Source: Gemmatimonadota bacterium (lineage in GTDB: Bacteria; Gemmatimonadota; Gemmatimonadetes; Palauibacterales; KS3-K002). From it: 59,729 nt of DNA. Both the position numbers and the translations under genes were made by a program. Under the pieces are notes generated by a model. That model was not told the DNA's origin. It did no database searches and saw nothing but the letters and a program-made list of their open reading frames with translations. The stretch is from contig JBFJOD010000003.1 in assembly GCA_041617795.1 (NCBI GenBank), forward strand, positions 1 through 59,729, read 5' to 3'. Shown here piece by piece: positions 1 through 28,405 of this stretch (position 1 is its first letter; each line of letters starts with the position of its first letter).

Positions 1-443
1 CGCTGGTCATCCTCGACGAGCCGACCACCGCGCTCGACGTGATCGTGGAGCGCGAGATCCTCGAGCAGATCCGCGCGCTGCAGCAGCGGCTCGGCTTTGC
101 GGTCCTCTTCATCACCCACGACCTTGCCCGCATGCTGGAGTTCTCCGACCGTGTGGCGGTCTTCTACGCCGCTCGCCTGGTCGAGGTGGGACCGGCCGGC
201 GAACTGCGCCGCGCTCCGCGGCACCCCTACACGCAAGGTCTGCTGCGTGCCTTTCCAACCATGCGTGGTGACAGCGTCGAGCTGGAGAGTATTCCCGGTT
301 CGCCGCCCAGCCTCGAGAATCCGCCGCCAGGCTGCCGCTTCCACCCACGTTGTCCACTGGCCGTGGACCTCTGCCGCCAGCGTGAGCCGGAACTGGTCGA
401 GCTCGCTCCTGGCCACGCCGCCGCTTGCCACCTAGCGGAGTAG
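1..443 (+). CDS. Opp/Dpp-family ABC transporter ATP-binding subunit (5'-truncated by window edge)
   Basis: Frame is open from position 3: LVILDEPTTALDV (Walker B/D-loop), FITHDL (H-loop), C-terminal HPYT and GCRFHPRCP..C..ACH oligopeptide-ABC tail. Confidence 0.93.
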   Translation, partial: LVILDEPTTALDVIVEREILEQIRALQQRLGFAVLFITHDLARMLEFSDRVAVFYAARLVEVGPAGELRRAPRHPYTQGLLRAFPTMRGDSVELESIPGSPPSLENPPPGCRFHPRCPLAVDLCRQREPELVELAPGHAAACHLAE

Positions 444-460
444 ACCGGCGCAGCCCTTCA

Positions 461-3400
461 CTACATGGCGAGGTGCAGGTAGCTGCGGATCTCCCACTCG
501 TTACCGTTGGATCCCGGTGCCCCCGGGTCGCAGCGTGGCGTGCCCGTCGCGTCAGGTACTTCGGCCGGGCAGTAGCGGGGCGAGTAGCGGTTTAGCGATC
601 GCCAGTTAGCGCGCACGCCGAAGCGCGTTTGCGGGAGACCGAACCAGCGCGGCGAGCCGAGCGTGTGCGACAGATCCGCCATGAGCTGTACAGGGAAGGT
701 AAGGTTGAAGTCGCGGTGATAGTCGTACGGCCCCCAATCGTTGAATTTGGCGAACGTCGCGAACGCGATCGAGCCTACGGCGATGCGGGCGTCGGCGCCG
801 TAGCGATGGATGAGTCGCTGGTCGTCGCCGTTCGGTTCGCCCGTGCCGGCGTAGAGGTGCGCTACAAGGCGCGCGTCGCTGCTCAGCCGCGACACCAGGC
901 GGCCGTTCAACTCCCAGAGATCGCGCGGCGGAGTGGCACCCGGGAAGGCGAAGGGCGTACGGCCGTCCGCCAGGATGCCGATGCTGGCGTCCTGGGTGGT
1001 CGGCAGATGCCGGAAGACGAGGCCGAGACTCGCGGCAAGCCGCGCGTCTTCACGGATGTCGTTATCCCACAGCCACATCCATGACGCTGGCGTCGGGTCG
1101 TAGCTCACCAGGAATTCCGCTGCGACCATCTCGCGATTGGCGCGCACCGCGAAGGGATCGTCGAGGATGTTGCGTGGCCGGCCGGGTGCTGGAGCGTCGC
1201 TCGGCACCGGACCGATGATCGGTTTCTGCCACAGGAAGTTCGGTCCGACTTGGAAGTTGCCCAGGTTGAGGGCGAGGCCGCTGATGGCGTTCACTTGGTT
1301 GCCGGATCCGCTGTCCTTGAGGCTCCAGCCTGTGTATGTGATGGTCGCGGTGGGACCACCGTCCGCGACGACTCCCATGTAGGCGCCTTGGGCGTACCAG
1401 TGCCAGCGTCCGCGTTCCAACGTGACCTTGGCTTTGGCGCCGAACGCATCGGACGAACGGACGCTGTCCTGAAGGACGCGGTAGCCGCCATCCTCTCTCT
1501 CTGCGACCTGGAAGCGATCGCCGACCTTGGTGGATCCAGACCAGATGCCGCCCAGCTCGAAGCCGAGGTTGCCCAAGGCGCCCGTCAACTGGAGCGTTGC
1601 CTTGCGCGTCGGTGGAAGGGGCACCGCGATCGAGCTAAACACCGCGGACTGCGCGGCGATATCTTCCTGAAAGATCGCGGTAGCCTGGAGCGAGCCGATG
1701 TTGCGGCTGTACTTGATCAGGAACGCAGGGTTGGCGCCCCACCAGAGCTGCGGGCCGACGGCTAGCTTCAGCCCCTCCAGCGACTTCTTGCCACTCAACT
1801 CCAAGCCAACCGGCGCTTCGGCATTATAGATGTCGGTGTTCGGGCCGTAGAAGGCGTCCCGGTACAGCCCAAAGAAGTCGCCCTCGTAGCCCCAGTGGGT
1901 GTGGCCGGTGCGGTAGAAACCGTCCAGCAGGAACCAGCGATCATCCCAGGACACGGTCGCGCCGTAGACCTTAACCCGCTCGATTCCTTCGAAGGGCAAG
2001 CTTTCGCCGTCAACTTCTACAGCGCGGGTGCGGCCGCGGTTCTCGTAGAAGATCTCGTCGATCGGATTGACCGGCACATGGCCGAGGATATTGAGAGAGA
2101 GGGTGCCCGTGACGTTGTCGCGGGGGCGGGCTTCGATGTCGGCATAGAACGATTCTAGATGGTCGAAGCCGCGGAAGGCGGGCAGCGTTGTCTGCGGCGT
2201 CTCGTCGCTAGGCGTGCTTATCCGGTCACCGCCCGTGCTGTAGGTCTCGAGCTGGAGCCGCAACCCGCTCAAGCGGACGCGCTCGAGGATATCGCCGGAA
2301 CGGCCGGCGAGGTCGGCCCGCGCTTCGAGAGCGACCGACGCCAGGTCGATGGCGGCGAAGTGGGCTTGGATCGCCGCGAGGTCCGTCTCTGGCGCGTAGG
2401 GGTCCAGCTGGAACGCTCGGCGCAGGGCGTAATAGGCGGCCCGCGGGTAAAGCTCGAACAGCCCGCGGTCGTCGGGCGACCCCTTGGCGACGATCCCCCA
2501 CCACTCTTCGTTCATGTTGTTCTCGCCCTCGACGAAGTCGTGGGGGTAGGCGGCGTTGGGCCAGGTGGCGTTCGTGTCGTGGATGTCGAGGCGATAATCT
2601 TGGCCGAACTTCCACCAGCCGTCGCTCCACTGGAAGACGAAACCGCCGATGGCGTTCCCGACCCGCCCCTTGCCACTCGACTGCTCGTAGATCTCCTGCC
2701 ACTGGCCGAGCAGGTAGCGCGCTTGGGCCGCCTGGTCTTCACGCATCTCCCTGGCGTTCCAAGCGTCGGCGCCGAACTCGGTGAACATGACCGGGACGCC
2801 GAGCTTGTCCCTGACCACCTGGAACAGATCGCGGGCCGAGATTCCGCGGTAGACGTTGGTGCCGAAGATGTCCAGCTCCTCGCACTCCTCGGCGATGATG
2901 TCGAGGTACTGCGCGTCGCCGTTGGCGATGGCGACCGGCCGGTTGGGGTCTCGCGCTTTCACGGCACGAATGACCTGGCCGAAGAGCGAGTAGAGGTGGC
3001 GGGCGCGGGCGGCGTCGCGCTCGCCCTCGGGCAGTGCCTCGATCTCGAAGGAGGTCCACGACAGCCCGTAGTTGTTCTCGTTCCCGAGCAACCACATGAG
3101 GAGGCCAGGTGTGCCGCGGAACTCATCCACTAGCGCGACGATTTCCGCCGTCACGGCCGCGCGCAGGCGCGGATTGGAGTAGTCGACCTGCGGGATCCAC
3201 ACGCCATCGAGCGTGAACCCGTAGCGTGCCATCGGATGGTTGAGGACGGTGTAGATGCCGTACTCCTCGTAGATGTAGCGGACCCAGCGCGGCGGGATGC
3301 CGACATACTGCCGGATGGCGTTCACCCCCATCGCTTTTAGCAGTGGCATCTCACGGGCGAGGGCCGCTTCGATGACATCGTCCGGCTGATTCCAGAGGCT

Positions 3401-3634
3401 GTAGAGGTAATTTTCGTTGATCGGTATGTAATCCCAGTTCATTCCGAAGATCATGAAGTCCCGACCGTCCACCTGAAGCCGCCAGCCTGCCGCATCCGAG
3501 ACCACGCGGATGTCGGCTTGGGTGCGCGCGGCCTCCTGTGACCAGGCCAACGCTGGCGTCAGGGCCAAGGCAGCGGCGATTGCGGCCCAGAGCCCTGGAG
3601 CGAACCGGGTGGGGTGTCTTCGAATCGAGTTCAT
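461..3634 (-). CDS. Exported glycoside hydrolase (clan GH-A TIM barrel, GH2/GH158-like) fused to a large C-terminal probable outer-membrane beta-barrel
   Basis: ATG at 3634 with GAGGAGG RBS (shorter than the ORF-track start). Signal peptide ending ALA-WSQ; LKAMGVNAIRQY, LGNENN (acid/base), FTEFGAD (nucleophile), GGFVFQWSDGWWK. C-terminal ~600 aa is rich in amphipathic strands and ends EWEIRSYLHLAM. Confidence 0.8.
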   Translation of the reverse strand: MNSIRRHPTRFAPGLWAAIAAALALTPALAWSQEAARTQADIRVVSDAAGWRLQVDGRDFMIFGMNWDYIPINENYLYSLWNQPDDVIEAALAREMPLLKAMGVNAIRQYVGIPPRWVRYIYEEYGIYTVLNHPMARYGFTLDGVWIPQVDYSNPRLRAAVTAEIVALVDEFRGTPGLLMWLLGNENNYGLSWTSFEIEALPEGERDAARARHLYSLFGQVIRAVKARDPNRPVAIANGDAQYLDIIAEECEELDIFGTNVYRGISARDLFQVVRDKLGVPVMFTEFGADAWNAREMREDQAAQARYLLGQWQEIYEQSSGKGRVGNAIGGFVFQWSDGWWKFGQDYRLDIHDTNATWPNAAYPHDFVEGENNMNEEWWGIVAKGSPDDRGLFELYPRAAYYALRRAFQLDPYAPETDLAAIQAHFAAIDLASVALEARADLAGRSGDILERVRLSGLRLQLETYSTGGDRISTPSDETPQTTLPAFRGFDHLESFYADIEARPRDNVTGTLSLNILGHVPVNPIDEIFYENRGRTRAVEVDGESLPFEGIERVKVYGATVSWDDRWFLLDGFYRTGHTHWGYEGDFFGLYRDAFYGPNTDIYNAEAPVGLELSGKKSLEGLKLAVGPQLWWGANPAFLIKYSRNIGSLQATAIFQEDIAAQSAVFSSIAVPLPPTRKATLQLTGALGNLGFELGGIWSGSTKVGDRFQVAEREDGGYRVLQDSVRSSDAFGAKAKVTLERGRWHWYAQGAYMGVVADGGPTATITYTGWSLKDSGSGNQVNAISGLALNLGNFQVGPNFLWQKPIIGPVPSDAPAPGRPRNILDDPFAVRANREMVAAEFLVSYDPTPASWMWLWDNDIREDARLAASLGLVFRHLPTTQDASIGILADGRTPFAFPGATPPRDLWELNGRLVSRLSSDARLVAHLYAGTGEPNGDDQRLIHRYGADARIAVGSIAFATFAKFNDWGPYDYHRDFNLTFPVQLMADLSHTLGSPRWFGLPQTRFGVRANWRSLNRYSPRYCPAEVPDATGTPRCDPGAPGSNGNEWEIRSYLHLAM

Positions 3635-3644
3635 GCCAGCCTCC

Positions 3645-5021
3645 TCAGGGGCACCGTTTTGCGCCGTCGTCCAAGGCGCGCGCGATCGCAACGTCGCGAT
3701 ACCAGAAGGCGCTGTCTCTCGGGCTACGCTGCTGTGTAGCAAAGTCGACTTTGTAAAGGCCGAAGCGCTTGGTATAGCCGAACGCCCACTCGAAGTTGTC
3801 GAGGAGCGACCAGACGAAGTAGCCGCCGAGCGGTACGCCGTCGGCGAGGGCGCGATTAGCCGCTACAAGGTGGCTGCGCAGGTAATCGACGCGGCGCCGG
3901 TCGGCGATGCGGCCCCCGCCGTCCGATGCGTCCGGGTAGGCGGCACCGTTCTCGGTGATGTAGATCTTCGGCGGCCGGTAATCACGCGTGAGCCTCACGA
4001 GCAGATCGTAAAGCCCCTGCGGGAACACCTCCCAGCCCATGTCGGTGAGTTCCTCCTCCGGAGCCACCGGCACGGCGACGGGCTCGCCGTTCCCGTCAGC
4101 CCGCACCACCACGCGGCTGTAGTAGTTGACGCCCAGGAAGTCGAGCGGCGCTGCGATAGCTTGCATGTCGCCATCACACACGAATGCGAGCTCGTGTCCG
4201 CTCAAGTGGCCACGGCGGACCCGGTCCTCGACCGCGTCCTCTGGGTAACGCCCGAAAAAGATAGGATCGAGGTACCAGCGGTTGAACGACCCGTCGAGCC
4301 GACGTACCGCCTCGCGGTCGGCCTCCGTCGCTGTGGCGGGCCAAACCGGCACAAGGTTTAGCGTGATGCCGACCTCGGCGTTCGGCGCGTTCCGCCGCAA
4401 CGCCTCGGCAGCCCAGCCGTGGGAAAGCAGTACGTGGTGGGCGACGCACAGCGCCTCGAGAGAGTCGCAGTGGCCCGGAGCATGCTCGCCCTGCTCGTGG
4501 CCCAGCGTGGCGATACACCAGGGCTCGTTGTGCGTTATCCAGTCGCAAACGCGGTCGCCAATCTGCCTGCTAACGACGTCGGCGTACTCCACGAAGGCCT
4601 CGGCCGTGTCGCGTGCGCCCCAGCCGCCCCGTTCCTGAAGCGCCTGCGGGAGGTCCCAGTGGTAGAGCGTGACGAAGGGTCGGATACCCGCCTCGAGTAG
4701 CGAATCGATTAGCGCGTTATAGAAGTCGAGGCCAGCCGCGTTGATCGCGCCGCGGCCGTCCGGCAACACCCGGGGCCAGGAGATGGATAGACGGTACGCG
4801 TCGAGGCCGAGCCAGCGCAGCAAGCTGATGTCCTCACGCCACCGGTGGTAGTGGTCGCAGGCGACGTGAGCGTCCGAGCCGTCGGCGATCCGCCCGGGCG
4901 TCGCGGCGAAGCGGTCCCAGATCGACTCGCCGCGCCCTCCTTCACCATAACCCCCTTCGATCTGCTGAGCTGAGGTGGCAACGCCCCAGAGAAATCCGTC
5001 AGGAAAAGCGATCCTGGCCAT
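3645..5021 (-). CDS. bglA: GH1 beta-glucosidase (cytoplasmic)
   Basis: FPDGFLWGVATSAQQIEG, CDHYHRW, TLYHWDLP, THNEP (acid/base), ITENG (nucleophile), WSLLDNFEW; no signal peptide. Confidence 0.96.
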   Translation of the reverse strand: MARIAFPDGFLWGVATSAQQIEGGYGEGGRGESIWDRFAATPGRIADGSDAHVACDHYHRWREDISLLRWLGLDAYRLSISWPRVLPDGRGAINAAGLDFYNALIDSLLEAGIRPFVTLYHWDLPQALQERGGWGARDTAEAFVEYADVVSRQIGDRVCDWITHNEPWCIATLGHEQGEHAPGHCDSLEALCVAHHVLLSHGWAAEALRRNAPNAEVGITLNLVPVWPATATEADREAVRRLDGSFNRWYLDPIFFGRYPEDAVEDRVRRGHLSGHELAFVCDGDMQAIAAPLDFLGVNYYSRVVVRADGNGEPVAVPVAPEEELTDMGWEVFPQGLYDLLVRLTRDYRPPKIYITENGAAYPDASDGGGRIADRRRVDYLRSHLVAANRALADGVPLGGYFVWSLLDNFEWAFGYTKRFGLYKVDFATQQRSPRDSAFWYRDVAIARALDDGAKRCP

Positions 5022-5027
5022 CGCTGC

Positions 5028-6023
5028 TCAGCCCTCCGGGTAGAGGTGACAGCGGACCCGCCGCCCCTCGAAAATCCGGGGTGATGGGTCGCTGCTGCGG
5101 CAGATGTCGTGCACGTCCGGGCAACGGGGTGCGAACGGGCAACCTGCCACCGTTCCGTCATCCGCCAGCGCTCCGGCGTCCGCTGCTGGTCGCCGGGCTT
5201 CCGGCTTTGCCTCGGCATCGGCGATGGAGGCGAGCAAGGCGCGGGTGTATGGGTGGGCCGGTGTTCCCACCAGAGCGCTGCTTGGCCCGTCCTCTACCAC
5301 CCGGCCGCGGTAGAGTACGAGGATGCGGTTCGCCAGATAGCGGGCCGAGGCGAGGTCGTGTGTGATGAGCAGAATCGCGAGCTGGCGCTCTCGCTTGAGC
5401 TCGGCGAGCAGGTTCAGCACGCCCATGCGGATCGAGACATCGAGCATCGAAGTCGGCTCGTCCGCGACGAGCAGGTCGGGATCGACGGCGAGGGCGCGAG
5501 CGATGGCAACGCGTTGCCGCTGACCGCCCGACAGCTCGTACGGGTAGCGGTCGATGAACTCCTCAGCCGGTTCGAGCCCGACGGTACGCAGCAGCTCAAT
5601 TGCCCGAGCGCGGGCTTCGCCGCGCTTCGCCTGGTTGTGCCGGAGGAGCGGTCGCACCAGGTGATGGGCGACGTTGTGCACGGGGTTTAGGGAGCCGAAG
5701 GGATCTTGGAACACCATTTGTACACGGCCGCGGTAGCCGAGGGAGGCCCGGCGCCGCTCGCGGGCAAAGACGTCCTCTCCATCGAGGTAGATCACGCCGC
5801 CGTCGGGCGGCTCGAGCCGCAGCAGCAAGCGCGCTACGGTACTCTTGCCGCTCCCCGACTCGCCCACTAAGGCGACCGCCTCGCCCCGGTCGATTCGGAA
5901 CGAGACGTCCTCGGCTGCCACCACCCGGCGGGCCTCGCCGAAGAGGGCCCGGGAGGTGAAGGTCTTGCGGATTCCGCGCACCTCGAGGAGGGTGTGGCGC
6001 GGAGGTGTGGTGTGGGTTTGCAC
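5028..6023 (-). CDS. Opp/Dpp-family ABC transporter ATP-binding subunit (OppF-like)
   Basis: GESGSGKS, LSGGQRQR, DEPTSMLDVSIR, HPYT, GCPFAPRCP; GTG start with GGGAGAG upstream. Confidence 0.95.
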   Translation of the reverse strand: MQTHTTPPRHTLLEVRGIRKTFTSRALFGEARRVVAAEDVSFRIDRGEAVALVGESGSGKSTVARLLLRLEPPDGGVIYLDGEDVFARERRRASLGYRGRVQMVFQDPFGSLNPVHNVAHHLVRPLLRHNQAKRGEARARAIELLRTVGLEPAEEFIDRYPYELSGGQRQRVAIARALAVDPDLLVADEPTSMLDVSIRMGVLNLLAELKRERQLAILLITHDLASARYLANRILVLYRGRVVEDGPSSALVGTPAHPYTRALLASIADAEAKPEARRPAADAGALADDGTVAGCPFAPRCPDVHDICRSSDPSPRIFEGRRVRCHLYPEG

Positions 6024-6143: not shown

Positions 6144-9100
6144 TCAAGACTCCCCGTCATATCCCGGCCGCACGATCACAAACAGCCCCTGGTTGGCGGG
6201 GACCGGCACACGCGACACGTCGATCTCGGCCGCTGACTGGAGGCCCTCAACAGCCGGTGCCTGCGCACGCATGCCTGACGCCACGCCGAGCGCGTCCGGA
6301 TCGAGGGTCAGGCTCACGATTTCGTCTTCCCCCGACCACGATGCCAGAGCGATCAGGAGCCCATCTGAACGGACGTAGGTGGTCGCGAGCACGCGAGGAT
6401 GATCCGTCGTGACCGGCGCATCGTCCAGCCAGTATCCCAACATGCGACTCTCGGCGATCCCGAACTCGTCCATCAGGCGCCACACGGGACGCGGATCTAC
6501 GTCACCGTAAATGCGCGCCGTCATGCCGTACAACATGCCGCGGTACGGATGCCCGCCGTCCTGCAGCATCTCGCCCATCAAACCGAACGGCAGGCCGGAC
6601 ACCTCGGTGAGCCAGTAGTCCTCGTCCCGGTCGTACTCGAAGTACTCGCCGAACCAGAGCCGCGAGATGAACGGGAAATGTTCCATGTACAGCATGGCGC
6701 TGTTGATGTATCCGTCACGCGGGTTGAACTGGTTGGCCGAGTGCAGATCGATGACGACCTCGTCGCGATGCTCGTGGAGGACGGAGATCATGCGCTTCAC
6801 CGTCTCGCGGCTGAAGGCGATGTCATCGAGATACAGGCCGTCGATGTGTTGGTTGGCGGCCAGCCAGGCGAGCCCCTCGATGTAGTAGTTGGTCCAGCGC
6901 GATGTACCCTTGTTGAGCATCGCCGCATCGTCCACCCGCCATGCGTGCCAGGCCGAGTGGTAGTTGGTCTTGAGGTGCTCCTGCATCCACGAGTGCCCTC
7001 CACCCTCGCCGTCGTTCAAGATCTCGTCGCCGAGGCTCCGCAGCGCAAACAGCTCGTGCGCGCGATAAGTCAGCTCGCGAATGGTGTTGTAGAGCTTGAC
7101 CTTGATGCCTTTCGCGTGCGCTTCCTCGATGTACCTGGTCTGCCGGTCCAGGTTGAAGAACGGGTAGTTGATGTAGGGATTGATCTCGTTGGCATGGTGG
7201 ATGTTGACCACCGTGCCGCCCCACGCCATGACCGAATCGACGGGCACGTAGCGATGCACGAACCGAGTGCGGAAATGCGCCCGGGTGTCGATCGGCTTGA
7301 ACGGTGTGAGCAGGAACCGGATGTTGAACTGCAGCGTGTCACCTGCGGCCATCCATCGAGCGCCCGAGTAGTTGCGGGCGGTGACATCGTCGGCGCCCGT
7401 CTCGATCCGAATGCCGCCGTGCCCGCCGTTGAACCACGACGCCGGCATCCGCAGCGGTTGATTCTGGTAGAAGTTCGTGTTGAGCGGTCGCACATACGAA
7501 TCATCCCGCAACACGTACTGAAGCCCCGCGTTGATTCCGCCGAGCCAGACGCCCTCCTGGTTATTCTCGACCTTCCAAGTCCAATCGACGTGCTGTGGGC
7601 GCTTCCCGCCGCGGAATCCCAACCCCAGCATGTACTCGGCGGCGGTGGGAACCAGGGCGATGGGGAGGGCTATGTCGTCCAGCTGGAGATCGCGCAACGC
7701 TTGCACACGGATGCGATAGTCGAGCATGCCATCGTATTCCAGGGCACCCTCCACCTGTACGCTCACCCGCTCGGATCGGCTTTCGGTGGACCAGGCGGCG
7801 CGACCGCGTGCCTCCTGCCGCACCGTATACGCAGATGGCTCCAACTGCTCCGGTCGGCCGTCCATGACGATCTCGAGGTCGATCGGGCGCGCAAGGATCG
7901 GCTGTGGCGTCTCGGCGAGGTGGGTGAGCTCGGGGCTGAAGTAGCTGATCAGGCGGTCCGGCAGGCCCGACGCTCCCAGCTCGACCGTCCGGCCCAAGAT
8001 TGAAAGTGAGTGCCCCTCGATGCGAACCGGCTGGTATGGCTCGATGATGAAGTCGGGATCGGTTCCGGCGGTCGAGTTCAACCAGGCAAGCCGAGTCATG
8101 AACTCGGGCGAGTCGAATCCGCGATTGGCGATCCGGCCTGGTTGGACGTCGAGCACGATGCGTACAGCCTTGCTGCCCCGGTCAGCGGTCGACACCGTCA
8201 CGTTGCCGGCGTATATCCCCGGGTCCTGATCCTCGGGCATCGCGAGCCCCATCCAAAGCGGCTGCACGCTACCCGCCGGCACCGAAACGTCGGTCACGAA
8301 GCGCTGTCCCTTTTCGTCGATACCGCCGCAGTTAAAGCAGGTGAATCTCTCTTGGAATGCGGCTGGGAAACCGTCGAAGGCCACGCCAACCCCGCTCAGC
8401 GGGTCAGCGCCGGCGATCACCGCGAGTTGAAACGCGAAGTACTCGCCCCGTAGCACGCGGCTGCTGAATTCGCCCAGGTGTCCGCGCTCTGTCCAGTGGT
8501 GCGGCAAGAAGTGCTGCATGCGTACGGGATAGTCGCGATGTTCTGGGACTAGCGCCCACCCATCTGGAACCTGGGAAATGAACGCGGCGGTCTCGGAGTC
8601 GCTGGCAATCACCTCCATCGGAAAGAAGCTGTGGAACGCATTTACCGATTGGATATGCGTGGTCCGCGCTCGCGGCAAACTCGACGGATACGCGGCGCGG
8701 ACACGCCGTTCCCAGGCCACTTCCGCTGTCGACGCAGGCTTCGGGTAAGTGATCCTTGGGTAGTAACCCCCGGTCGATTCCCACGGCATGTAGTAGACGT
8801 GATAGGTGGCGGATCCCGGGTTCGGCTGGAACACGATGTCGCCCGACAAGTTCTCCACGCGTAACGCGAGGACGTTCGAGATGGGATCGTTGGAGGCCGC
8901 GTCGACCACCACGACGCTCTTGGCCGCGGGATCCCGATCGCGTCGCCGCCACGGGATTGTGACCAGCACCGCCTCACCGCCAGCCCCGTCGAGTACGACC
9001 ACGGCTCGGTGATTCCCCCACGAGCTGCCCTCCGCGCCCGCCGCGAGCTGCGGCTCCCAATTACCGGCCTCGAACACCACACCATCGATGGTGTTGTTGA

Positions 9101-9209
9101 TCTCTGGTGCGCGGTATAGCTCTCCCGATCCTCCCGGCTCGTTGCATGAGATCAGCAGCAGCGCGGCTGCTGCGGCAAGGAAGCGTTGTGTCATTCGCTT
9201 GTGCGTCAT
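6144..9209 (-). CDS. Large lipoprotein, DUF6067/GH123-like putative glycoside hydrolase
   Basis: Lipobox LLISC; SWGNHRAVV, FFPMEVIA, NIHHANEINPYINYPF, KVKLYNTIREL, IDGLYLDD, LWFGEYF resemble the DUF6067 family; ATGA overlap with the upstream gene. Confidence 0.72.
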   Translation of the reverse strand: MTHKRMTQRFLAAAAALLLISCNEPGGSGELYRAPEINNTIDGVVFEAGNWEPQLAAGAEGSSWGNHRAVVVLDGAGGEAVLVTIPWRRRDRDPAAKSVVVVDAASNDPISNVLALRVENLSGDIVFQPNPGSATYHVYYMPWESTGGYYPRITYPKPASTAEVAWERRVRAAYPSSLPRARTTHIQSVNAFHSFFPMEVIASDSETAAFISQVPDGWALVPEHRDYPVRMQHFLPHHWTERGHLGEFSSRVLRGEYFAFQLAVIAGADPLSGVGVAFDGFPAAFQERFTCFNCGGIDEKGQRFVTDVSVPAGSVQPLWMGLAMPEDQDPGIYAGNVTVSTADRGSKAVRIVLDVQPGRIANRGFDSPEFMTRLAWLNSTAGTDPDFIIEPYQPVRIEGHSLSILGRTVELGASGLPDRLISYFSPELTHLAETPQPILARPIDLEIVMDGRPEQLEPSAYTVRQEARGRAAWSTESRSERVSVQVEGALEYDGMLDYRIRVQALRDLQLDDIALPIALVPTAAEYMLGLGFRGGKRPQHVDWTWKVENNQEGVWLGGINAGLQYVLRDDSYVRPLNTNFYQNQPLRMPASWFNGGHGGIRIETGADDVTARNYSGARWMAAGDTLQFNIRFLLTPFKPIDTRAHFRTRFVHRYVPVDSVMAWGGTVVNIHHANEINPYINYPFFNLDRQTRYIEEAHAKGIKVKLYNTIRELTYRAHELFALRSLGDEILNDGEGGGHSWMQEHLKTNYHSAWHAWRVDDAAMLNKGTSRWTNYYIEGLAWLAANQHIDGLYLDDIAFSRETVKRMISVLHEHRDEVVIDLHSANQFNPRDGYINSAMLYMEHFPFISRLWFGEYFEYDRDEDYWLTEVSGLPFGLMGEMLQDGGHPYRGMLYGMTARIYGDVDPRPVWRLMDEFGIAESRMLGYWLDDAPVTTDHPRVLATTYVRSDGLLIALASWSGEDEIVSLTLDPDALGVASGMRAQAPAVEGLQSAAEIDVSRVPVPANQGLFVIVRPGYDGES

Positions 9210-12200
9210 GGTGATAGCGAGAGAGCTCGCAGCAGCAAGTGACCGTCCAGGCCGTCGAATAAAGCGGCGTGGTCGGCGGCGAGTCGTAAAGCGACCGCAC
9301 CTACATCCTTGCCGCGTTCGATGGCGCTCACCAATTCAACCGCGAACGCGCCAACAGCGGTTTCTGCGTTGAAGCTGTTTGCGTGCAACGCTTCGGTACG
9401 GCCGAGCGCCGCCAAGGCGGGAATCGCGAGCAGGTCGAGTGGGTCAACCGCATCCGTTGGGTTCGTGGCATCGACCACCGCTTGAAACGCCGCGCGTGCA
9501 CGATCGCGCTCGCCGAGTCGTCGCTCCGTGTGTCCCAGCAGATACTGCACGAGTCGCTCCTCCGGCTCGTACGGACGGCCCTGTCCCAGGTGCTCGGGCC
9601 AGTCGAGGGCGGCACGCAGGTGCTGCCGCGCGTCGGCGAACGCATCACGCTCAAGCGCGTCGAGAGCAGCCAACGTGTATGCCTGCTCGTACAGTAAGTG
9701 GCTGGTGCGCGCGCTTTCGGACGGAAGGACGTGAGTGGCATTCAGGATATCGATCGCCTCGCGCGATCGTCCGAGCTCGTTGAGCGACCGCACGTGCAAG
9801 AGATCCAGATTGAAATCGCCGGCGAACAACGTCCGGCCCCGGTCCGACTGGGCCAGTGCGTCTTCCCACCGCCCCCGATCTTGCAGATGCCGGACCAGAT
9901 GGATGCGAATCGTCCGGTCAGCGCCGTCAATCTGCACGGCGCGGCGCAAGTCCGCCTCCGGGTCCCGCCCGGAAAGGCGCTGGAGCAAGTGCGCGCGTGT
10001 CACGTAGAAAGGAGCGAAATCCGGCCGTTCGCCCAAGCCCACCAGCAGCTCGGCCAACTCGGCCTCCCGATCCAGGGCCCAGAGATTGAGCGCCAACAGA
10101 TAGGTCCACGACCAGTGGTCGTCATGTTCCGCAGCCCAGCGAATCACCGGAAGGGTCTCGCGCCGGAACGGAAAGACGAATATCGGGTCGGCGCCACCCG
10201 CAAGCACCGACGGGTCGTCCTCCAGCCACCCGCGCCAGACCCGGAGCAGCGGGTTTGACGAGACAGCCATGCCGAGGCGGAGCAGCGCAACGGCATCAGC
10301 GGGCGCGCCCCGTCGGACGTAGTCGACGGCGAGTTCCAGGATCGTCTGGTCGGGGTACTCGCTCCGCAACGTTGCGATCATCGCCTGCGCCGACGTCTGG
10401 CTCGGCGCTGCGAGAAAGGCCTCGGCCGTCGCGAGGTGATGCAGCGGATCGATCTCGAGCAGTTCCTCACGCATTGACGCGACCAGTGCCGAGTCGCCCC
10501 GCTTCCGACCGACCATCGCCAGCACCTGCCGTGCCGGCAGGTTGTACCGATCGTAGTCCAGCGCGAGCCGGGCGTACCGCGTGGTTTCAAGATCGTCACC
10601 GCCGGCGAGCGCCAATTCGGCCAGCTGGACGTAGGCGGCGGAGCGATACGCCATCGCCCGGGCTGCCCAGCCGTACGCCTCCCGCGCGTCGCTGGCACGG
10701 TTCAACGCTCGATAAAGGTTCCCGGCAGTGAAGTTCGCCGCGGCATCGTAGGTGTCGAGCTGCAATACACGAGTCACGTGTGTCAGCCCCGAGTCGTACC
10801 GGCCGCGGCGGTACTCCAGATCGCCGAGGCCGAGCAACGCGTCGCGATGCCACGGCTCTGCGGCGAGCGCCCGCTCGAACGATTTGCGGGCGGCGGCGTA
10901 GCGACGGCCCTGGGCCAACTCGCGTCCCTCCGCGACCCAGCGATCGGCGTCCGGGATCTGCGGCCATGCGGACGGGTCGGTCACGAACGGCCTGGCCAGG
11001 GCGCGCGTGGCGGCGTCGGACGTGTAATCCAGGCCGAGTGCGGGAAGCTCCACCCGGTAAATGGCTTCATCGGCCAGGTCGATGGTTCGTGTGACAGGTG
11101 CAAGGGCCGAGAACGCAATGGGTTGGGAGGCGATGACGCGGCCGCCGGATGAGATGCGCAGCGTGTCCGTGGTGTCACCGAACGCATTCACGCTCACGCT
11201 CAAGCGTCCGTCAGCGTGTCGAACGTGCATGGCGCCGTCGCGCGAGGCATCCGTGAGTCCGCCGATGCCCTCCAAAGGAAACCAGGTCTCGGTCCAGCGA
11301 TCGGCGACCCCGGGATCGAATCCTACCTGCGTGATCGGATTGCGCTCCGGCCCCGGCGCGTACTGGACGAGCAGCCGCCCGGCCTGGAATTCGATGTACT
11401 GCCCATCGCTATCGGTGAGCAGATCCTCCCACACACCCCCTTCACGGGACAGCGCCCAGAGCCAGAGCTTCTGCCCCGGCATTTCTTCGTAGCGCGCCCA
11501 GTGACCGAACCCGTACTCGTCGTCGTGGTAGTAACCGCCGAAAAAGTCGTCCAACTCTCCGACGACATGGTAGGACTTGTGTCCGGCGAACGTGTTGTTG
11601 GCATAGGCGGGCAGGTAGCGGCCCATGCTGTCGACGGGCCAGTCTCGTCGGGCTCCGGAATGTGCGAGAAAGGCGTTGCCCGGGATGGACATCTCGAGAT
11701 CACCGCGCGCGAAAGCCGCTGCCGTCATCCAGTTATAGTAAGGTTGTTCGAGCGGGGTCGGGTTGTACCAGAAAACGTGCGTCTCGAAATACGCGCGGTC
11801 GGCGGGCAGGCGGATCTCGACGCGCCAGTGGGTGCGGGATGGCAGATCCATCGCTCCGACGAAGCAACTCACGCTTCCGTCGGGATTCTCGCGCAAGACG
11901 TAATCGACTGGCGTGGCGGTCGACGGCGTGTGGCCGATGACCCCGAAGTTGAATTCGATCCCGCCCGAGGTCCACGGACCGCGCAGCGCGATATTCCGGA
12001 ACTTCATCACCTCGTTGCGATAGATGAACTCGTGTCCCGTGCGCTTCACGACGGCGCCCCACACCTTGCCGCCGGCCTGGGGGAGCACGAACACCTCGAT
12101 GAGGTCGTTCTCAAGGTGAACGACCTTCCATTCCTGCTGGACCCCGTCCCTCGCGTATCCTTCGAAGGAGTGGTAGGGGTACAGGCGGACATCACGCGTG

Positions 12201-12349
12201 AGGATCGGGATCGGATTGGGCTCCGAGAACGGGTAGGTCGTGATGACCCGCGTTGCCTCTGAGACGCGGGCGGTCTGGGCGGCGGACGGGGTGGCCAGCG
12301 ACGTGAGCGCGGCAATCAGCACGATCGTGGTGCGACACGACATAGGCAT
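9206..12349 (-). CDS. Exported DUF5107 domain plus TPR repeat protein
   Basis: Signal peptide (PSAA-Q); TYPFSEPNPIP, LENDLIEVFVLPQAGGKVWGA, IALRGPWTSGGIEFNFG, GQYIEFQAGRL, then many TPR helices. Confidence 0.82.
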   Translation of the reverse strand: MPMSCRTTIVLIAALTSLATPSAAQTARVSEATRVITTYPFSEPNPIPILTRDVRLYPYHSFEGYARDGVQQEWKVVHLENDLIEVFVLPQAGGKVWGAVVKRTGHEFIYRNEVMKFRNIALRGPWTSGGIEFNFGVIGHTPSTATPVDYVLRENPDGSVSCFVGAMDLPSRTHWRVEIRLPADRAYFETHVFWYNPTPLEQPYYNWMTAAAFARGDLEMSIPGNAFLAHSGARRDWPVDSMGRYLPAYANNTFAGHKSYHVVGELDDFFGGYYHDDEYGFGHWARYEEMPGQKLWLWALSREGGVWEDLLTDSDGQYIEFQAGRLLVQYAPGPERNPITQVGFDPGVADRWTETWFPLEGIGGLTDASRDGAMHVRHADGRLSVSVNAFGDTTDTLRISSGGRVIASQPIAFSALAPVTRTIDLADEAIYRVELPALGLDYTSDAATRALARPFVTDPSAWPQIPDADRWVAEGRELAQGRRYAAARKSFERALAAEPWHRDALLGLGDLEYRRGRYDSGLTHVTRVLQLDTYDAAANFTAGNLYRALNRASDAREAYGWAARAMAYRSAAYVQLAELALAGGDDLETTRYARLALDYDRYNLPARQVLAMVGRKRGDSALVASMREELLEIDPLHHLATAEAFLAAPSQTSAQAMIATLRSEYPDQTILELAVDYVRRGAPADAVALLRLGMAVSSNPLLRVWRGWLEDDPSVLAGGADPIFVFPFRRETLPVIRWAAEHDDHWSWTYLLALNLWALDREAELAELLVGLGERPDFAPFYVTRAHLLQRLSGRDPEADLRRAVQIDGADRTIRIHLVRHLQDRGRWEDALAQSDRGRTLFAGDFNLDLLHVRSLNELGRSREAIDILNATHVLPSESARTSHLLYEQAYTLAALDALERDAFADARQHLRAALDWPEHLGQGRPYEPEERLVQYLLGHTERRLGERDRARAAFQAVVDATNPTDAVDPLDLLAIPALAALGRTEALHANSFNAETAVGAFAVELVSAIERGKDVGAVALRLAADHAALFDGLDGHLLLRALSLSP

Positions 12350-26302: not shown

Positions 26303-26953
26303 ATTGGAAGCGTCGTTCTAGGCGGGCAGTCTAAAAGTCGATCAACTCGAATACATCATCGAAATCTGGTAGCCAATCGCCGGCTTTGCCGACGGCCATC
26401 GCAGCATGATACGTCGCACACGCGTCTTGGCGGGTCGTCGTACCGCTGGGTGCGACCGGTACCCCCCGGGCGCAATCCGTATCGCCAGGCCGCCGGCTCT
26501 GTTGTGAAACGTCGTGATCAGTCATCTGGGGTCGCCGAACGTACCCTGACTTGCTGAATCGGTAGCGCCGCCGGGGGGCCGGACATACTCAACTAAAAGA
26601 CGATTAAGACCGGTCCACGGTCACCGACGGGCGTTTTCTCCCCAAAAAGGTAAGCGGGCCGACCGGCTGCGCACCGTTCGGCCCGTTCCCCAACTCTCTC
26701 TAGGCTGTGGGCTTGGGGTCCCATCACCTGTATAGACGAGCAAGGCGGCGAAAAGGTCACCAGCGCGGGTGGCGGTCTGCCAGCTTAGCCTGGCTGCAAT
26801 GCGGTAGGGCGCGGCGTCCTTGTATCTCGGGTTCAACTGTCCCATTTTTCTTTGGCCCTTCCAAGAGAAAAGAGGCTCGAGCTTGGTGCACCGCGCGGGC
26901 TGCGCGTCTTGAGCCGTTGCGGATTCGGTCATCGCAGTGAAGGAGGTGTAACC

Positions 26954-28405
26954 GTGCGTTGCCAGGAATTCCTCGCGGCAGTCGGTCTCTTGCTCGTAGG
27001 TGCGACAACAACGCTGCAGGCACAGCAGGCCCAGCGGCCCCGAATGGGTGCCGAAGGGGTGGAAGTCGAGCTTTACGGCGGTGTGTTCATCCCAAACGAG
27101 CCGGCTTTCCTGCCGACAGAGCCGCCATTCAATCTCGATCCTCGGGACCCGATCTTCGGTGCACGTCTCGGCTACACGTTCCCGCTCAACTTCTTCTTAC
27201 AGGGAGAGGTCGGCTACTCACCGCTGGCGTTCGTCCGTTCGGGTAGCGCGCGGAACGTGAACATGCTCGTCTACGGCGGTTCGTTGGGTTATAACCTTCA
27301 ACTGGCCCGACCGCTACAGTTCTTCTTGCTAGGTGGCGCCGGTGTGATTCACTGGGATGCTGACGGCCTGCGGCAAGAAAACAAGCTGAGGCTGCATGCG
27401 GGCGGTGGTTTTCGCGCTTTTCTCAGCCGCGCCGTGGCCATCCGTGTGGAATTCCGTGATCATATCGTTCCAGCGACGATGACTCAGATCCGTGAGGACC
27501 TGGTGCCGGGTTTGGTCGCGCCGGACGAGGCAACGCACAACTTCGAGATCAGTGGTGGTATCTCGCTGTTCTTCGACACACGCCGCGACAACGATGGCGA
27601 TGGGATCAGCAACGATTCCGACAGGTGCCCGAATACGGTCCGCGGTGTGCTGACCGACTCGCGTGGCTGTCCGCTGGATGGTGATGCTGATGGGGTGGCC
27701 GATCATCTGGATCGCTGTCCGGCCACGACGGCGGGAGTTCCGGTCGACGCGAGCGGCTGCCCGCTGGACGGCGACGGCGACGGTGTAGTCGATGGACGTG
27801 ACCTGTGTCCGAACACACCGATCGGCACCTCGGTCGATGAACGGGGCTGTGAGAAAGACAGCGATTCCGACGGGGTGCCCGACGGGCGCGACCTCTGCCC
27901 GAGAACGGCTGAGGGAATCGCAGTCAACGAAACGGGGTGTCCACTGGACGCCGACGACGACGGCATTCCGGATGGGCGTGACCGTTGTCCCAGCACGCCG
28001 CGGGGAAGAGCGATTAACGAAGAAGGCTGCAGTCGGATCGAATCAGGTCTGGAAGCGGGTCGGCTTATCCTATCGGAGATCTCGTTCCAAACCGGTAGCT
28101 CAGCGTTGCAGGCTGAATCCAGACGTGTGCTGGACGAAGTGGCCGAAGCCCTGACGGCACGGCCGAACATGGAAATCGAGATCCAGGGTCATACGGACTC
28201 GCAGGGCTCTGCGGCGGCAAACCTGCGACTGAGCGACCGGCGGGCGCGAGCAGTGTATGATTACCTGATCGGCACGTATCCGGGCCTCAATCGCAGCCGA
28301 TTCGTGGTACGGGGCTACGGCGAGACATCACCGATCGCGTCGAACGACACCGCGTCGGGTCGGCGGGCCAATCGGAGAGTTGAGTTCCTAGTGCTCAACC
28401 GGTGA
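26954..28405 (+). CDS. OmpA-family protein: beta-barrel, TSP3-like repeats, OmpA C-terminal peptidoglycan-binding domain
   Basis: GTG 26954 after AGGAGG; signal peptide; eight-strand barrel pattern; IQGHTDSQG..NLRLSDRRA..NRRVEF. Confidence 0.92.
   Translation: MRCQEFLAAVGLLLVGATTTLQAQQAQRPRMGAEGVEVELYGGVFIPNEPAFLPTEPPFNLDPRDPIFGARLGYTFPLNFFLQGEVGYSPLAFVRSGSARNVNMLVYGGSLGYNLQLARPLQFFLLGGAGVIHWDADGLRQENKLRLHAGGGFRAFLSRAVAIRVEFRDHIVPATMTQIREDLVPGLVAPDEATHNFEISGGISLFFDTRRDNDGDGISNDSDRCPNTVRGVLTDSRGCPLDGDADGVADHLDRCPATTAGVPVDASGCPLDGDGDGVVDGRDLCPNTPIGTSVDERGCEKDSDSDGVPDGRDLCPRTAEGIAVNETGCPLDADDDGIPDGRDRCPSTPRGRAINEEGCSRIESGLEAGRLILSEISFQTGSSALQAESRRVLDEVAEALTARPNMEIEIQGHTDSQGSAAANLRLSDRRARAVYDYLIGTYPGLNRSRFVVRGYGETSPIASNDTASGRRANRRVEFLVLNR
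27587..28030 (+). repeat. Five tandem ~90-bp coding repeats (DxDxDG..D.CP.T...GC; TSP type-3-like Ca-binding)
   Basis: DNDGDG..DRCPNT, DGDADG..DRCPAT, DGDGDG..DLCPNT, DSDSDG..DLCPRT, DADDDG..DRCPST at 30-aa period. Confidence 0.9.

Follow-up and report, generated by a model that had tools for sequence, protein, structure and literature searches.

A predicted clan GH-A glycosidase fused to a probable outer-membrane beta-barrel: a candidate entry route for laminarin

A single gene in the Gemmatimonadota window, by which we mean the whole stretch of 59,729 nucleotides analysed here, encodes what we propose to be a two-part envelope protein. The layout is strongly supported and comprises a signal peptide, a clan GH-A glycosidase, a linker helix and a plug-less barrel of approximately 24 strands. 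A first-pass annotation of this DNA had read the gene as a one-polypeptide fusion of a glycosidase with a probable outer-membrane barrel, and the open reading frame, the fold model and the relatives of the protein confirm this. As an overall explanation, to which we assign a probability of about 0.6, we propose that the barrel is an outer-membrane entry channel for laminarin with the enzyme docked at its periplasmic mouth, allowing TonB-free uptake.

To our knowledge, outer-membrane laminarin uptake is understood almost exclusively through SusC/SusD and TonB-dependent transporters. If our proposal is true, the fusion family represents an unrecognised laminarin entry route, and the tethering of an enzyme to its own channel would offer a compact and testable model of how hydrolysis is coupled to transport. 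Laminarin is described as ranking among the ocean's largest carbon fluxes (PMC6246565, PMC11345257). Genes for GH158 or GH2 proteins, which may or may not belong to the fusion family, are mentioned among laminarin-locus genes in MAG studies (PMC12175321, PMC11345257). Our literature search found no description of the barrel or the fusion, and the supplementary locus figures and tables of PMC12175321 may show such genes.

Gene layout and glycosidase domain

The fusion gene (461..3634, minus strand) encodes 1057 amino acids plus a stop. Within its open reading frame (461..3742, minus strand) the start was assigned to the ATG at 3634, which is preceded by a Shine-Dalgarno sequence (GAGGAGG, 3640-3646) overlapping the TGA (3645-3647) of the upstream gene. 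The latter, directly adjacent in the same operon, encodes a GH1 beta-glucosidase without a signal peptide (3645..5021, minus strand; PF00232, 528 bits; TIGR03356, 612.7 bits), and is itself preceded by an Opp/Dpp-type ABC ATPase gene with ABC_tran and oligo_HPY Pfam domains (5028..6023, minus strand). On the other side, a convergent Opp-type ABC ATPase gene is truncated by the contig end, leaving its 3' part (3..443, plus strand; oligo_HPY, E 2.1e-21). The annotated flanking by GH1 and Opp-type ABC ATPase genes is thus borne out by Pfam. A small downstream lipoprotein gene was considered and rejected, the candidate antisense frame (3-431) having no signal peptide and overlapping the genuine ABC ATPase gene. 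Among the sequencing runs listed with the fusion gene, 20 are DNA and none is RNA.

Inspection of the N-terminus, MNSIRRHPTRFAPGLWAAIAAALALTPALA followed by WSQ, suggests a Sec signal peptide spanning residues 1-30 with cleavage at ALA/WSQ (3545..3634, minus strand; read by eye). The AlphaFold2 model of the full-length protein has a pLDDT of 87.4, falling below 50 in the signal-peptide region, and its TIM barrel begins approximately 10 residues past the signal peptide. The short helical linker of the first-pass annotation corresponds to a helix at residues 431-450 (2285..2344, minus strand; DSSP of the AlphaFold model). Likewise, the domain boundary it placed at nucleotide 2283, residue 451, agrees with the first barrel strand in both the AlphaFold model (453-470) and the coevolution map (451-465). 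The protein ends in EWEIRSYLHLAM.

The N-terminal domain (residues ~38-430; 2345..3523, minus strand) is strongly supported as an intact retaining glycosidase of clan GH-A with a (beta/alpha)8 fold, based on Pfam (PF02836), profile matches to the PDB and VIA-align. It contains the motifs GNEN (residues 184-187) and TEFG (285-288). N185-E186, the predicted acid/base pair (3077..3082, minus strand), aligns with N136/E137 of BuGH158, and E286, the predicted nucleophile (2777..2779, minus strand), with its E220. The catalytic role of these BuGH158 residues is reported as proven by mutation (PMC7157763). All three positions are nearly invariant among 331 full-length relatives (N185 in 329, E186 and E286 each in 328), and together with the fold this upholds the annotated assignment to clan GH-A, with the catalytic pair intact.

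By sequence, the enzyme domain is closest to the GH158 endo-beta-1,3-glucanases. A single-sequence search of the PDB with the fusion protein gave no match at E<=1; a profile search recovered two GH158 structures, 6pal (E 1.5e-11) and 9oro (E 3.8e-9), ahead of GH2 (9e-5). VIA-align scores of Z 24.8-27.9 were obtained to GH157, GH158, GH2 and GH5, and by this measure GH158 cannot be told apart from the other three, the highest score being to GH157 (9fz9, Z 27.9). The model aligned with 6pal_B over 303 residues (Z 24.8) and with 9oro_A over 302 (Z 26.3), at 20% identity. PF02836, the GH2 TIM barrel, matches at 29.5 bits (cut-off 21) and is found in 25 of 50 family members; the GH2 beta-sandwich domains PF02837 and PF00703 match neither the fusion protein at E<=0.01 nor any of the 50 members at E<=1.

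BuGH158 (6PAL) and GH158(Pro) (9ORO) share with the fusion enzyme a clan GH-A TIM barrel and the aligned catalytic N-E and E residues. However, BuGH158 is a protein of 400 amino acids with a C-terminal Ig-like domain, encoded in a locus with SusC/SusD, whereas the fusion protein carries a 607-residue barrel instead and has only two short strands in residues 334-430. The BuGH158 locus is described as serving beta-1,3-glucan utilisation and includes GH16, GH3 and an HTCS regulator (PMC7157763). GH148 EngU was also considered as a comparison and set aside, its architecture as described in PMC5725463 being unlike that of the fusion protein.

A plug-less barrel of about 24 strands

The C-terminal domain (residues 451-1057; 464..2284, minus strand) is strongly supported as a plug-less barrel of the outer-membrane class with ~24 strands and outside any named family. 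AlphaFold2 models its 607 amino acids with a pLDDT of 92.2, a pTM of 0.89 and ~24 long strands. Foldseek searches of the PDB gave at least 410 matches at E<=1e-3, of which all 50 listed were outer-membrane barrels, with low TM-scores to solved barrels of 0.17-0.38. All 50 matches listed by VIA-align against 48,161 chains were likewise membrane barrels, including AlgE (Z 16.1), MOMP (15.6), OprD-type porins (14-15), Wzi (13.7), maltoporin (13.4) and PelB (10.1), and alignments over the full range were obtained with FimD/PapC, a SusC-like protein, MtrB and TonB-dependent transporters. No Pfam or NCBIfam family and no PDB sequence matched the domain. As a side observation and a lead only, the protein-feature neighbours of one stand-alone homologue (P0273) were Msp-type porins (0.95) and Porin_4 (0.94).

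Mean-field direct coupling analysis (DCA; 397 sequences, Neff 316) likewise yielded a barrel topology. All 30 antiparallel ladder groups over threshold were pairs of neighbouring strands, in addition to a closure between residues 460-465 and 1050-1055, in which the pair 461-1054 ranked 20 of 172,578. Among the ladder cells with scores >20, 39 were antiparallel and 5 parallel, compared with 8 and 4 for a TIM-barrel control, which lacked a meander. Coevolution therefore describes an unbroken antiparallel meander whose first strand closes on the last to form a single sheet. The strand count is 22 from DCA alone and 24 from DSSP of the AlphaFold model, which adds 568-574 and splits 609-615 from 622-629. 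AlphaFold and DCA are not independent of each other, since both draw on the same coevolution signal.

The connections are strongly asymmetric. On the face of the termini, 11 turns have a median of 2 residues and invariant length, and on the opposite face 12 loops have a median of 26 residues and variable length. Some invariant acidic and aromatic loops, at 575-608, 805-835, 846-866 and 968-978, are candidates that may line or narrow the pore. The first (1811..1912, minus strand; HWGYEGDFFGL motif) lies on the long-loop face; its length is always 34, its entropy is low and its coupling 584-623 ranks 15th. The second (1130..1222, minus strand; RN..DDPFAV..NRE) is coupled by DCA to the distant wall residues 458 and 900 and is a candidate in-folded constriction. 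The third, a conserved connection of 21 residues (DPTPASWMWLWDNDIRED; 1037..1099, minus strand), is placed by the topology map on the face of the termini.

A soluble, beta-rich C-terminal half could be argued from the non-aromatic last residue and from an early crude scan, itself uninformative, in which alternation was weak. We consider this extremely improbable, as DCA, AlphaFold, Foldseek and VIA-align, the asymmetry of short turns and long loops, and the greater amphipathicity of strands than of connections (2.18 vs 1.13) all oppose it. We know of single closed sheets of more than 20 strands with such asymmetry only from membrane barrels. The C-terminal half folds as an outer-membrane-class barrel, so the soluble beta-sandwich or CBM fold that the first-pass annotation had set against its own reading is not what we find.

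The last strand (residues 1044-1057; 464..505, minus strand) pairs with the first by DCA and shows alternating hydrophobic residues, ending in M rather than an aromatic residue. Among the 120 closest relatives, 104 end in L, I or M. F, W or Y terminates 107 of 239 fused relatives and 34 of 36 stand-alone forms; of the stand-alone barrels with a signal peptide, 32 of 36 have F as their last residue. In the source genome an aromatic end, mostly F, is found in 8 of the 9 TonB-dependent receptors that are complete and in 8 of 10 Omp85-family open reading frames, the genome having 13 matches to the Omp85/BamA-type family PF01103, 11 of them over the cut-off. The F ends of the stand-alone barrels and the Omp85/BamA-type genes of this diderm host speak for an outer-membrane protein, and the terminal M of the fusion protein speaks against it.

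The closest known sugar barrels, namely maltoporin/ScrY, OprD/Occ, chitoporin, CymA and AlgE, are also plug-less and are the top structural matches (Z 13-16), but they have 14-18 strands and no fused enzyme, and alignments to them cover no more than 298 of the fusion barrel's 607 residues. The Pfam signatures of the LamB/ScrY, OprB, OprD/ChiP and AlgE families matched none of 50 members at E<=1. The barrel would merit its own family in Pfam and TCDB.

SusC/SusD importers of Bacteroidota resemble the fusion in locus place (regulator, large outer-membrane protein, lipoprotein, GH16), in size and in having a lipoprotein partner. In the susC position, the order is HTCS, fusion, lipoprotein and GH16. 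This likeness, together with the full-range alignments to FimD/PapC, the SusC-like protein and TonB-dependent transporters, favours a gated active transporter, a TonB-dependent- or usher-like pore with the enzyme domain or the lipoprotein as its plug or lid. However, SusC has a plug, the TonB-dependent-receptor signature and 22 strands, whereas the fusion barrel has ~24 strands, neither plug nor signature and no detectable homology, and its N-terminal module is an enzyme. The plug (PF07715), TonB-dependent-receptor (PF00593) and autotransporter (PF03797) families matched none of 50 members at E<=1, as the annotation had judged by eye. Comparison by hhalign of the barrel with the TonB-dependent receptors and Omp85 proteins of the source genome found no similarity, the probability against its nine TonB-dependent receptors being 0.1-0.2%. 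There is also no free N-terminal segment, as the chain past the signal peptide, starting DIRVV, folds directly into a beta-hairpin belonging to the enzyme domain. We therefore consider gating of this kind very unlikely.

Proposed docking and orientation of the enzyme

The best inter-domain pair in the coevolution analysis links E371 of the enzyme (2522..2524, minus strand) to R566 of the barrel (1937..1939, minus strand), and ranks 6 with a reduced alphabet (z 18.4) and 30 of 147,153 with the full one. Strands 4 and 5 are joined by a 3-residue turn that contains R566 and belongs to the face with both barrel termini. The pair shows charge swapping, with E-R (71), E-K (37) and D-R (32) on one side and Q-D (18), Q-E (15) and K-E (11) on the other. 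The remaining inter-domain couplings showed no enrichment on the termini face (P about 0.2-0.4).

In outer-membrane proteins the face with both barrel termini is, as a rule, periplasmic. Since E371 couples to a turn on this face, the enzyme is most likely positioned at the periplasmic mouth and not outside, a placement drawn from one residue pair and the topology rule.

Autotransporters likewise have a passenger, a helix and a C-terminal barrel in this order, and the fusion resembles them in its N-terminal enzyme, helix 431-450 and C-terminal barrel. The barrel might accordingly be a type V-like anchor or translocator that displays a laminarinase on the surface, with the linker helix passing through the pore. 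Such systems need a surface endo-glucanase. BuGH158 itself is regarded in PMC7157763 as predicted to act at the cell surface, which counts against a periplasmic placement. Surface display is nevertheless an unlikely reading, given that the barrel has ~24 strands rather than 12, that PF03797 is missing from all 50 members scanned, and that E371 couples to the termini face and not to an outer loop. In addition, 38 of 283 complete C-domains are barrels without an enzyme domain, and these passenger-free forms occur in loci with their own GH16.

Distribution, loci and the proposed uptake route

Relatives at E<=1e-3 numbered 4508 among 8000 candidates scored, and the family extends to no fewer than 588 species genomes from many phyla (588 of 600 pattern matches confirmed), hence the feature is far beyond chance. 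Its members carry database labels such as 'glycosidase', 'GH2' and 'beta-galactosidase'. Both fused and stand-alone forms are located in beta-1,3-glucan loci with GH16, GH149, GH17, GH30, GH3, GH1 and MFS or Opp-type ABC importers, consistent with the laminarin loci that the annotation had named. Among 53 long loci, GH16 is found in the flanks of 49, a sugar-binding-type lipoprotein in 48, and at least one of GH16, GH3, GH30, GH17 or GH1 in all 53; in 22 of 80 loci the gene immediately upstream encodes GH1. Further neighbours include a GH149 beta-1,3-glucan phosphorylase (1759 bits), MFS_2 and SBP_bac_5 ABC importers, HTCS, LacI and ROK regulators, and glucokinase. From this context, specifically the GH16, GH149, GH17 and GH30 neighbours, we predict beta-1,3-glucan specificity for the enzyme domain. 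Counting against our preferred explanation, the GH16, ROK and sugar-binding-lipoprotein genes of the source genome are on another contig and do not adjoin the fusion gene.

Several polysaccharide export systems pair a pore with a hydrolase or lyase, including AlgE/AlgL, PgaA/PgaB and BcsC/BcsZ. The best single structural match of the barrel is the export porin AlgE, with Wzi and PelB also among the top matches, and sugar-nucleotide genes precede the family member in one locus (L032). These points run counter to an import function and suggest a pore that secretes self-made beta-glucan, which a periplasmic hydrolase would trim or clear. The loci speak against it, as all 53 long ones contain catabolic beta-glucan hydrolases, accompanied by importers, sugar-responsive regulators, glucokinase and GH149, and none of the 27 Pfam-scanned loci encodes a glycosyltransferase or synthase. 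Export thus appears a decidedly poor explanation.

We therefore favour import, in which the barrel would admit laminarin or beta-1,3-gluco-oligosaccharides through the outer membrane where a locus lacks SusC/SusD. The E371-R566 salt bridge would dock the enzyme domain at the periplasmic mouth, where it could shorten incoming chains to fragments of a size that the Opp-type ABC importer, or MFS_2 in other lineages, can accept. A cytoplasmic GH1 here, and a GH149 phosphorylase or GH3 elsewhere, would finish these to glucose or glucose-1-phosphate. Because cleavage inside would hinder back-diffusion, such uptake may proceed without TonB.

A more speculative extension, which we regard as possible though doubtful, is energy-independent polysaccharide import, with laminarin threading the plug-less 24-strand pore and the endo-glucanase at its exit acting as a one-way ratchet. 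In Gemmatimonadota, Krumholzibacteriota, Ignavibacteriota, Calditrichota, Bacteroidota, Myxococcota and Gammaproteobacteria, beta-glucan loci might then rely on the module and a sugar-binding lipoprotein instead of SusC/SusD and TonB.

A coupling of cleavage and uptake has been proposed for FbGH17B of Formosa, an MFS-GH17 fusion involved in laminarin use (PMC6246565). That protein belongs to the inner membrane and combines a helical transporter with a different GH family, whereas the barrel described here is of the outer-membrane type. Separately, an MFS_2-GH3 fusion is encoded beside a family member in one of the loci (L013).

Gene structure and fold of the C-terminal domain

The fusion gene that the first-pass annotation had placed at 461..3634 on the reverse strand was confirmed. 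Its ORF spans 461..3742 (-) with an internal ATG at 3634, which is preceded by GAGGAGG (3640-3646), taken as the Shine-Dalgarno site and overlapping the TGA (3645-3647) of the upstream GH1 gene. Counted from this ATG the product has 1057 aa, and residues 1-30 read as a predicted Sec signal peptide that, judged by eye, ends in ALA before WSQ. The host assembly (3.29 Mb, 72% complete) contains 13 Omp85-family matches, and we therefore regard the host as a diderm.

For residues 451-1057, Pfam and NCBIfam scans gave no family, the Pfam result holding even for 50 members scanned at E<=1, and a search with a 50-member family profile gave no PDB sequence covering this half. The same half, searched against 1.84 billion representatives, returned 470 relatives. 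Complete C-domain proteins (n=283) mostly carry the enzyme domain (240) or part of it (5), and the remaining 38 are barrels alone, some of them 5'-cut. True stand-alone barrels, for example those of an Oceanospirillaceae/Pseudomonadales cluster, have a signal peptide followed directly by the first strand, and tails of the ...YTYKF type. In a sample of the Gemmatimonadota, the barrel was present in 14 of 201 genomes.

To describe the fold we ran our own mean-field coevolution analysis (DCA) of the C-domain (397 sequences, Neff 316, 592 columns). The antiparallel ladder groups above threshold (30/30) pair sequence-neighbouring strands, save for one closure ladder that joins the first strand (460-465) with the last (1050-1055), where the pair 461-1054 takes rank 20 of 172,578. 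Cells scoring above 20 in the ladders comprised 39 antiparallel and 5 parallel ones, whereas the TIM-barrel domain, put through the same DCA as a control, gave 8 versus 4 and no meander. AlphaFold2 modelled residues 451-1057 from 100 sequences with a pLDDT of 92.2 and a pTM of 0.89, giving 24 long strands and four loop hairpins, two strands more than the 22 obtained from DCA alone. Among the top 200 DCA pairs, 97 lie inside the 24 wall strands: 68 connect neighbouring strands, 2 fall within one strand and 27 are non-neighbour pairs, six of which join next-nearest strands. The strands are amphipathic, with a score of 2.18; the connections score 1.13 and the enzyme domain 1.36.

With Foldseek, the PDB chains matched by the C-domain at E<=1e-3 number at least 410, and all 50 among the matches listed are outer-membrane barrels, with low TM-scores of 0.17-0.38. 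Against 48,161 chains, VIA-align likewise placed only membrane barrels among the 50 matches listed (Z of 16.1 for AlgE, 15.6 for MOMP, 14-15 for OprD-type, 13.7 for Wzi and 13.4 for maltoporin). Alignment over the whole 1-607 range is confined, among these listed matches, to 22- to 26-strand barrels: FimD, PapC, MtrB and a number of TonB-dependent transporters, FyuA and XusA among them. Although AlphaFold and DCA share one coevolution signal and are not mutually independent, the predicted barrel fold class is not in doubt, and the C-terminal beta-barrel proposed in the first-pass annotation is well supported by the 24-strand model, the closed DCA meander and the listed fold matches, all to membrane barrels. 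Sequence similarity to TonB-dependent transporters was absent in a Pfam scan of 50 members and in hhalign comparisons with receptors of the same genome, and the Pfam scan also gave no similarity to autotransporters.

Assuming 24 strands, the face carrying both barrel termini has 11 connections, with a median of 2 residues and a constant length among the 397 sequences. Two connections depart from this pattern: 846-866, which is conserved, and 993-1002, which has 10 residues. On the opposite face, the 12 connections are of variable length, with a median of 26 residues. This split is the textbook layout of outer-membrane proteins, in which turns are periplasmic and loops external. Four loops are near-invariant in length and sequence (575-608, with HWGYEGDFFGL; 630-636; 846-866; 968-978), while loop 805-835 (RN..DDPFAV..NRE) shows good sequence conservation and a variable length. 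The latter couples to far wall residues in the DCA (pairs 458-810 and 820-900), as would be expected if it folds into the lumen.

The C-terminal methionine of the fusion (last strand at 464-505 (-)) is the one feature at odds with an outer-membrane barrel. The last residue is L, I or M in 104 of the 120 closest relatives, whereas an aromatic last residue prevails in both the complete TonB-dependent receptors (8 of 9) and the Omp85-family ORFs (8 of 10) of the same genome. Family-wide, a terminal F, W or Y is present in 107 of 239 fused and 34 of 36 stand-alone forms. The last residue also splits by lineage, with proteobacterial fused and stand-alone forms ending in F.

The enzyme domain and its predicted placement

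The only Pfam match of the enzyme domain is PF02836 (GH2 TIM barrel; 29.5 bits, residues 91-295), and an NCBIfam scan of the N-terminal domain gave nothing useful. When a 50-member family profile was searched against all PDB sequences, the best matches were the endo-beta-1,3-glucanase BuGH158 (6PAL, E 1.5e-11) and GH158(Pro) (9ORO, E 3.8e-9), with GH2 beta-galactosidases far behind (about 1e-4). Pfam scans of the fusion and 50 family members detected no GH2-type N-terminal sandwich domains. In the profile alignment, the GNE and TEFG motifs align with N136, E137 and E220 of BuGH158, and the available text of Dejean et al. (PMC7157763) states that mutants of these residues lost activity. Among 331 full-length relatives, N185 is kept in 329 and E186 and E286 in 328 each, in agreement with the earlier reading of both catalytic glutamates as intact. 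In a full-length AlphaFold model (pLDDT 87.4, pTM 0.64), residues 35-445 align with clan GH-A enzymes at Z 21-28. Since the scores spread over GH157 (9fz9, 27.9), a GH2 (27.0), a GH5 (26.5) and GH158 (9oro, 26.3; 6pal, 24.8), fold alone picks no GH family. We describe the domain provisionally as GH158-like.

Full-length DCA (331 sequences, reduced alphabet) has a noisy inter-domain signal, in which E371-R566 is the standout pair (rank 6, z 18.4). It also led the inter-domain pairs (rank 30 of 147,153) when the full alphabet was applied to a column subset, and its residues swap charge (E-R 71, E-K 37 and D-R 32 versus Q-D 18, Q-E 15 and K-E 11). R566 sits on the termini face, in the 3-residue turn joining strands 4 and 5. 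In known outer-membrane proteins both ends of the chain lie on the periplasmic side, and the enzyme domain should therefore be periplasmic, docked at the periplasmic rim of the barrel. Since an enrichment test of inter-domain couplings overall gave no excess on the termini face, this placement rests on the one coupled pair and the termini rule.

Gene neighbourhood and proposed function

The operon in the window runs from a DUF5107 and TPR-repeat protein (1047 aa; 9206-12349 (-)) through a PF19543 ('GH123_N') protein (1021 aa; 6144-9209 (-); end-to-end match, 1178 bits), an Opp-type ABC ATPase and a GH1 lacking a signal peptide to the fusion. Next to the fusion, the contig end truncates a convergent gene for an Opp-type ATPase. 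Neither of the first two proteins of the operon adjoins the fusion in 80 genome loci from Gemmatimonadota, Krumholzibacteriia, Eisenbacteria, GN15, Fibrobacteraceae, Ignavibacteriales, Rhodothermales, Calditrichota, Saprospiraceae, Chitinophagales, Bacteroidales and Myxococcales; GH1 lies directly upstream in 22 of the 80.

Long loci (53 of at least 15 kb) all encode at least one beta-glucan hydrolase (53/53), and their common neighbours are GH16 (49), a 640-aa lipoprotein (48), MFS_2 (30), ROK (28), GH149 (24) and GH3 (23), with a recurring order of HTCS, fusion, lipoprotein, GH16 and MFS_2. The lipoprotein, of a sugar-binding type and represented by P0416 (L046:11145-13079; 640 aa, lipobox LFTSC), has two tandem CBM-like repeats of ~170 aa and no match in Pfam, NCBIfam or PDB sequences. 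Lipoproteins of this type occur twice on another contig of the same genome (C8; 32744-35167 and 40940-42781), which also carries ROK and two GH16 genes. GH149 is a beta-1,3-glucan phosphorylase (NF058639, 1759 bits; L113:8369-11968), often accompanied by GH1 and glucokinase. Gammaproteobacterial stand-alone barrels adjoin GH16, a complete Opp-type SBP_bac_5 ABC importer and a LacI regulator. Taken together, the neighbour genes point to probable beta-1,3-glucan catabolism and import, not export.

The first-pass annotation had proposed a hydrolase tethered to its own outer-membrane channel. We consider the most likely mechanism, with a probability of roughly 0.6, to be a putative import in which the enzyme would cleave the glucan where the barrel opens to the periplasm.

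Several further genes lie near family members or in the window. Free-standing GH158-like enzymes of 332-352 aa lie just upstream of divergent fusion genes (L147:5159-6217, L150:5313-6311), so these two loci contain the enzyme in free as well as in tethered form. In proteobacterial-type loci, the fusion is directly followed by a 216-aa lipoprotein (P0428, L113:7650-8300; lipobox LTAGC), which tblastn matched in 41 of 80 metagenome loci and for which that query gave no match in the window or its genome. At 26852-28405 (+) the window also encodes a member of the OmpA family that combines thrombospondin type 3 repeats with an OMP_b-brl domain at its N-terminus.

The article text searched contained no description of the fusion or its barrel. 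In their available text, MAG studies name GH158 or GH2 among the genes of laminarin loci but make no mention of a barrel (PMC12175321, 10.1101/2024.06.04.597336, PMC11345257), and the terms outer membrane, porin and beta-barrel are absent from that of a GH158 mechanism paper (PMC13195107). The nearest published idea, as far as the available text conveys it, is an MFS-GH17 fusion of Formosa, which is an inner-membrane protein (PMC6246565). Beside one family member, L013:12411-15746 encodes a 1111-aa fusion of an MFS_2 sugar transporter with GH3, again an inner-membrane transporter-enzyme fusion.
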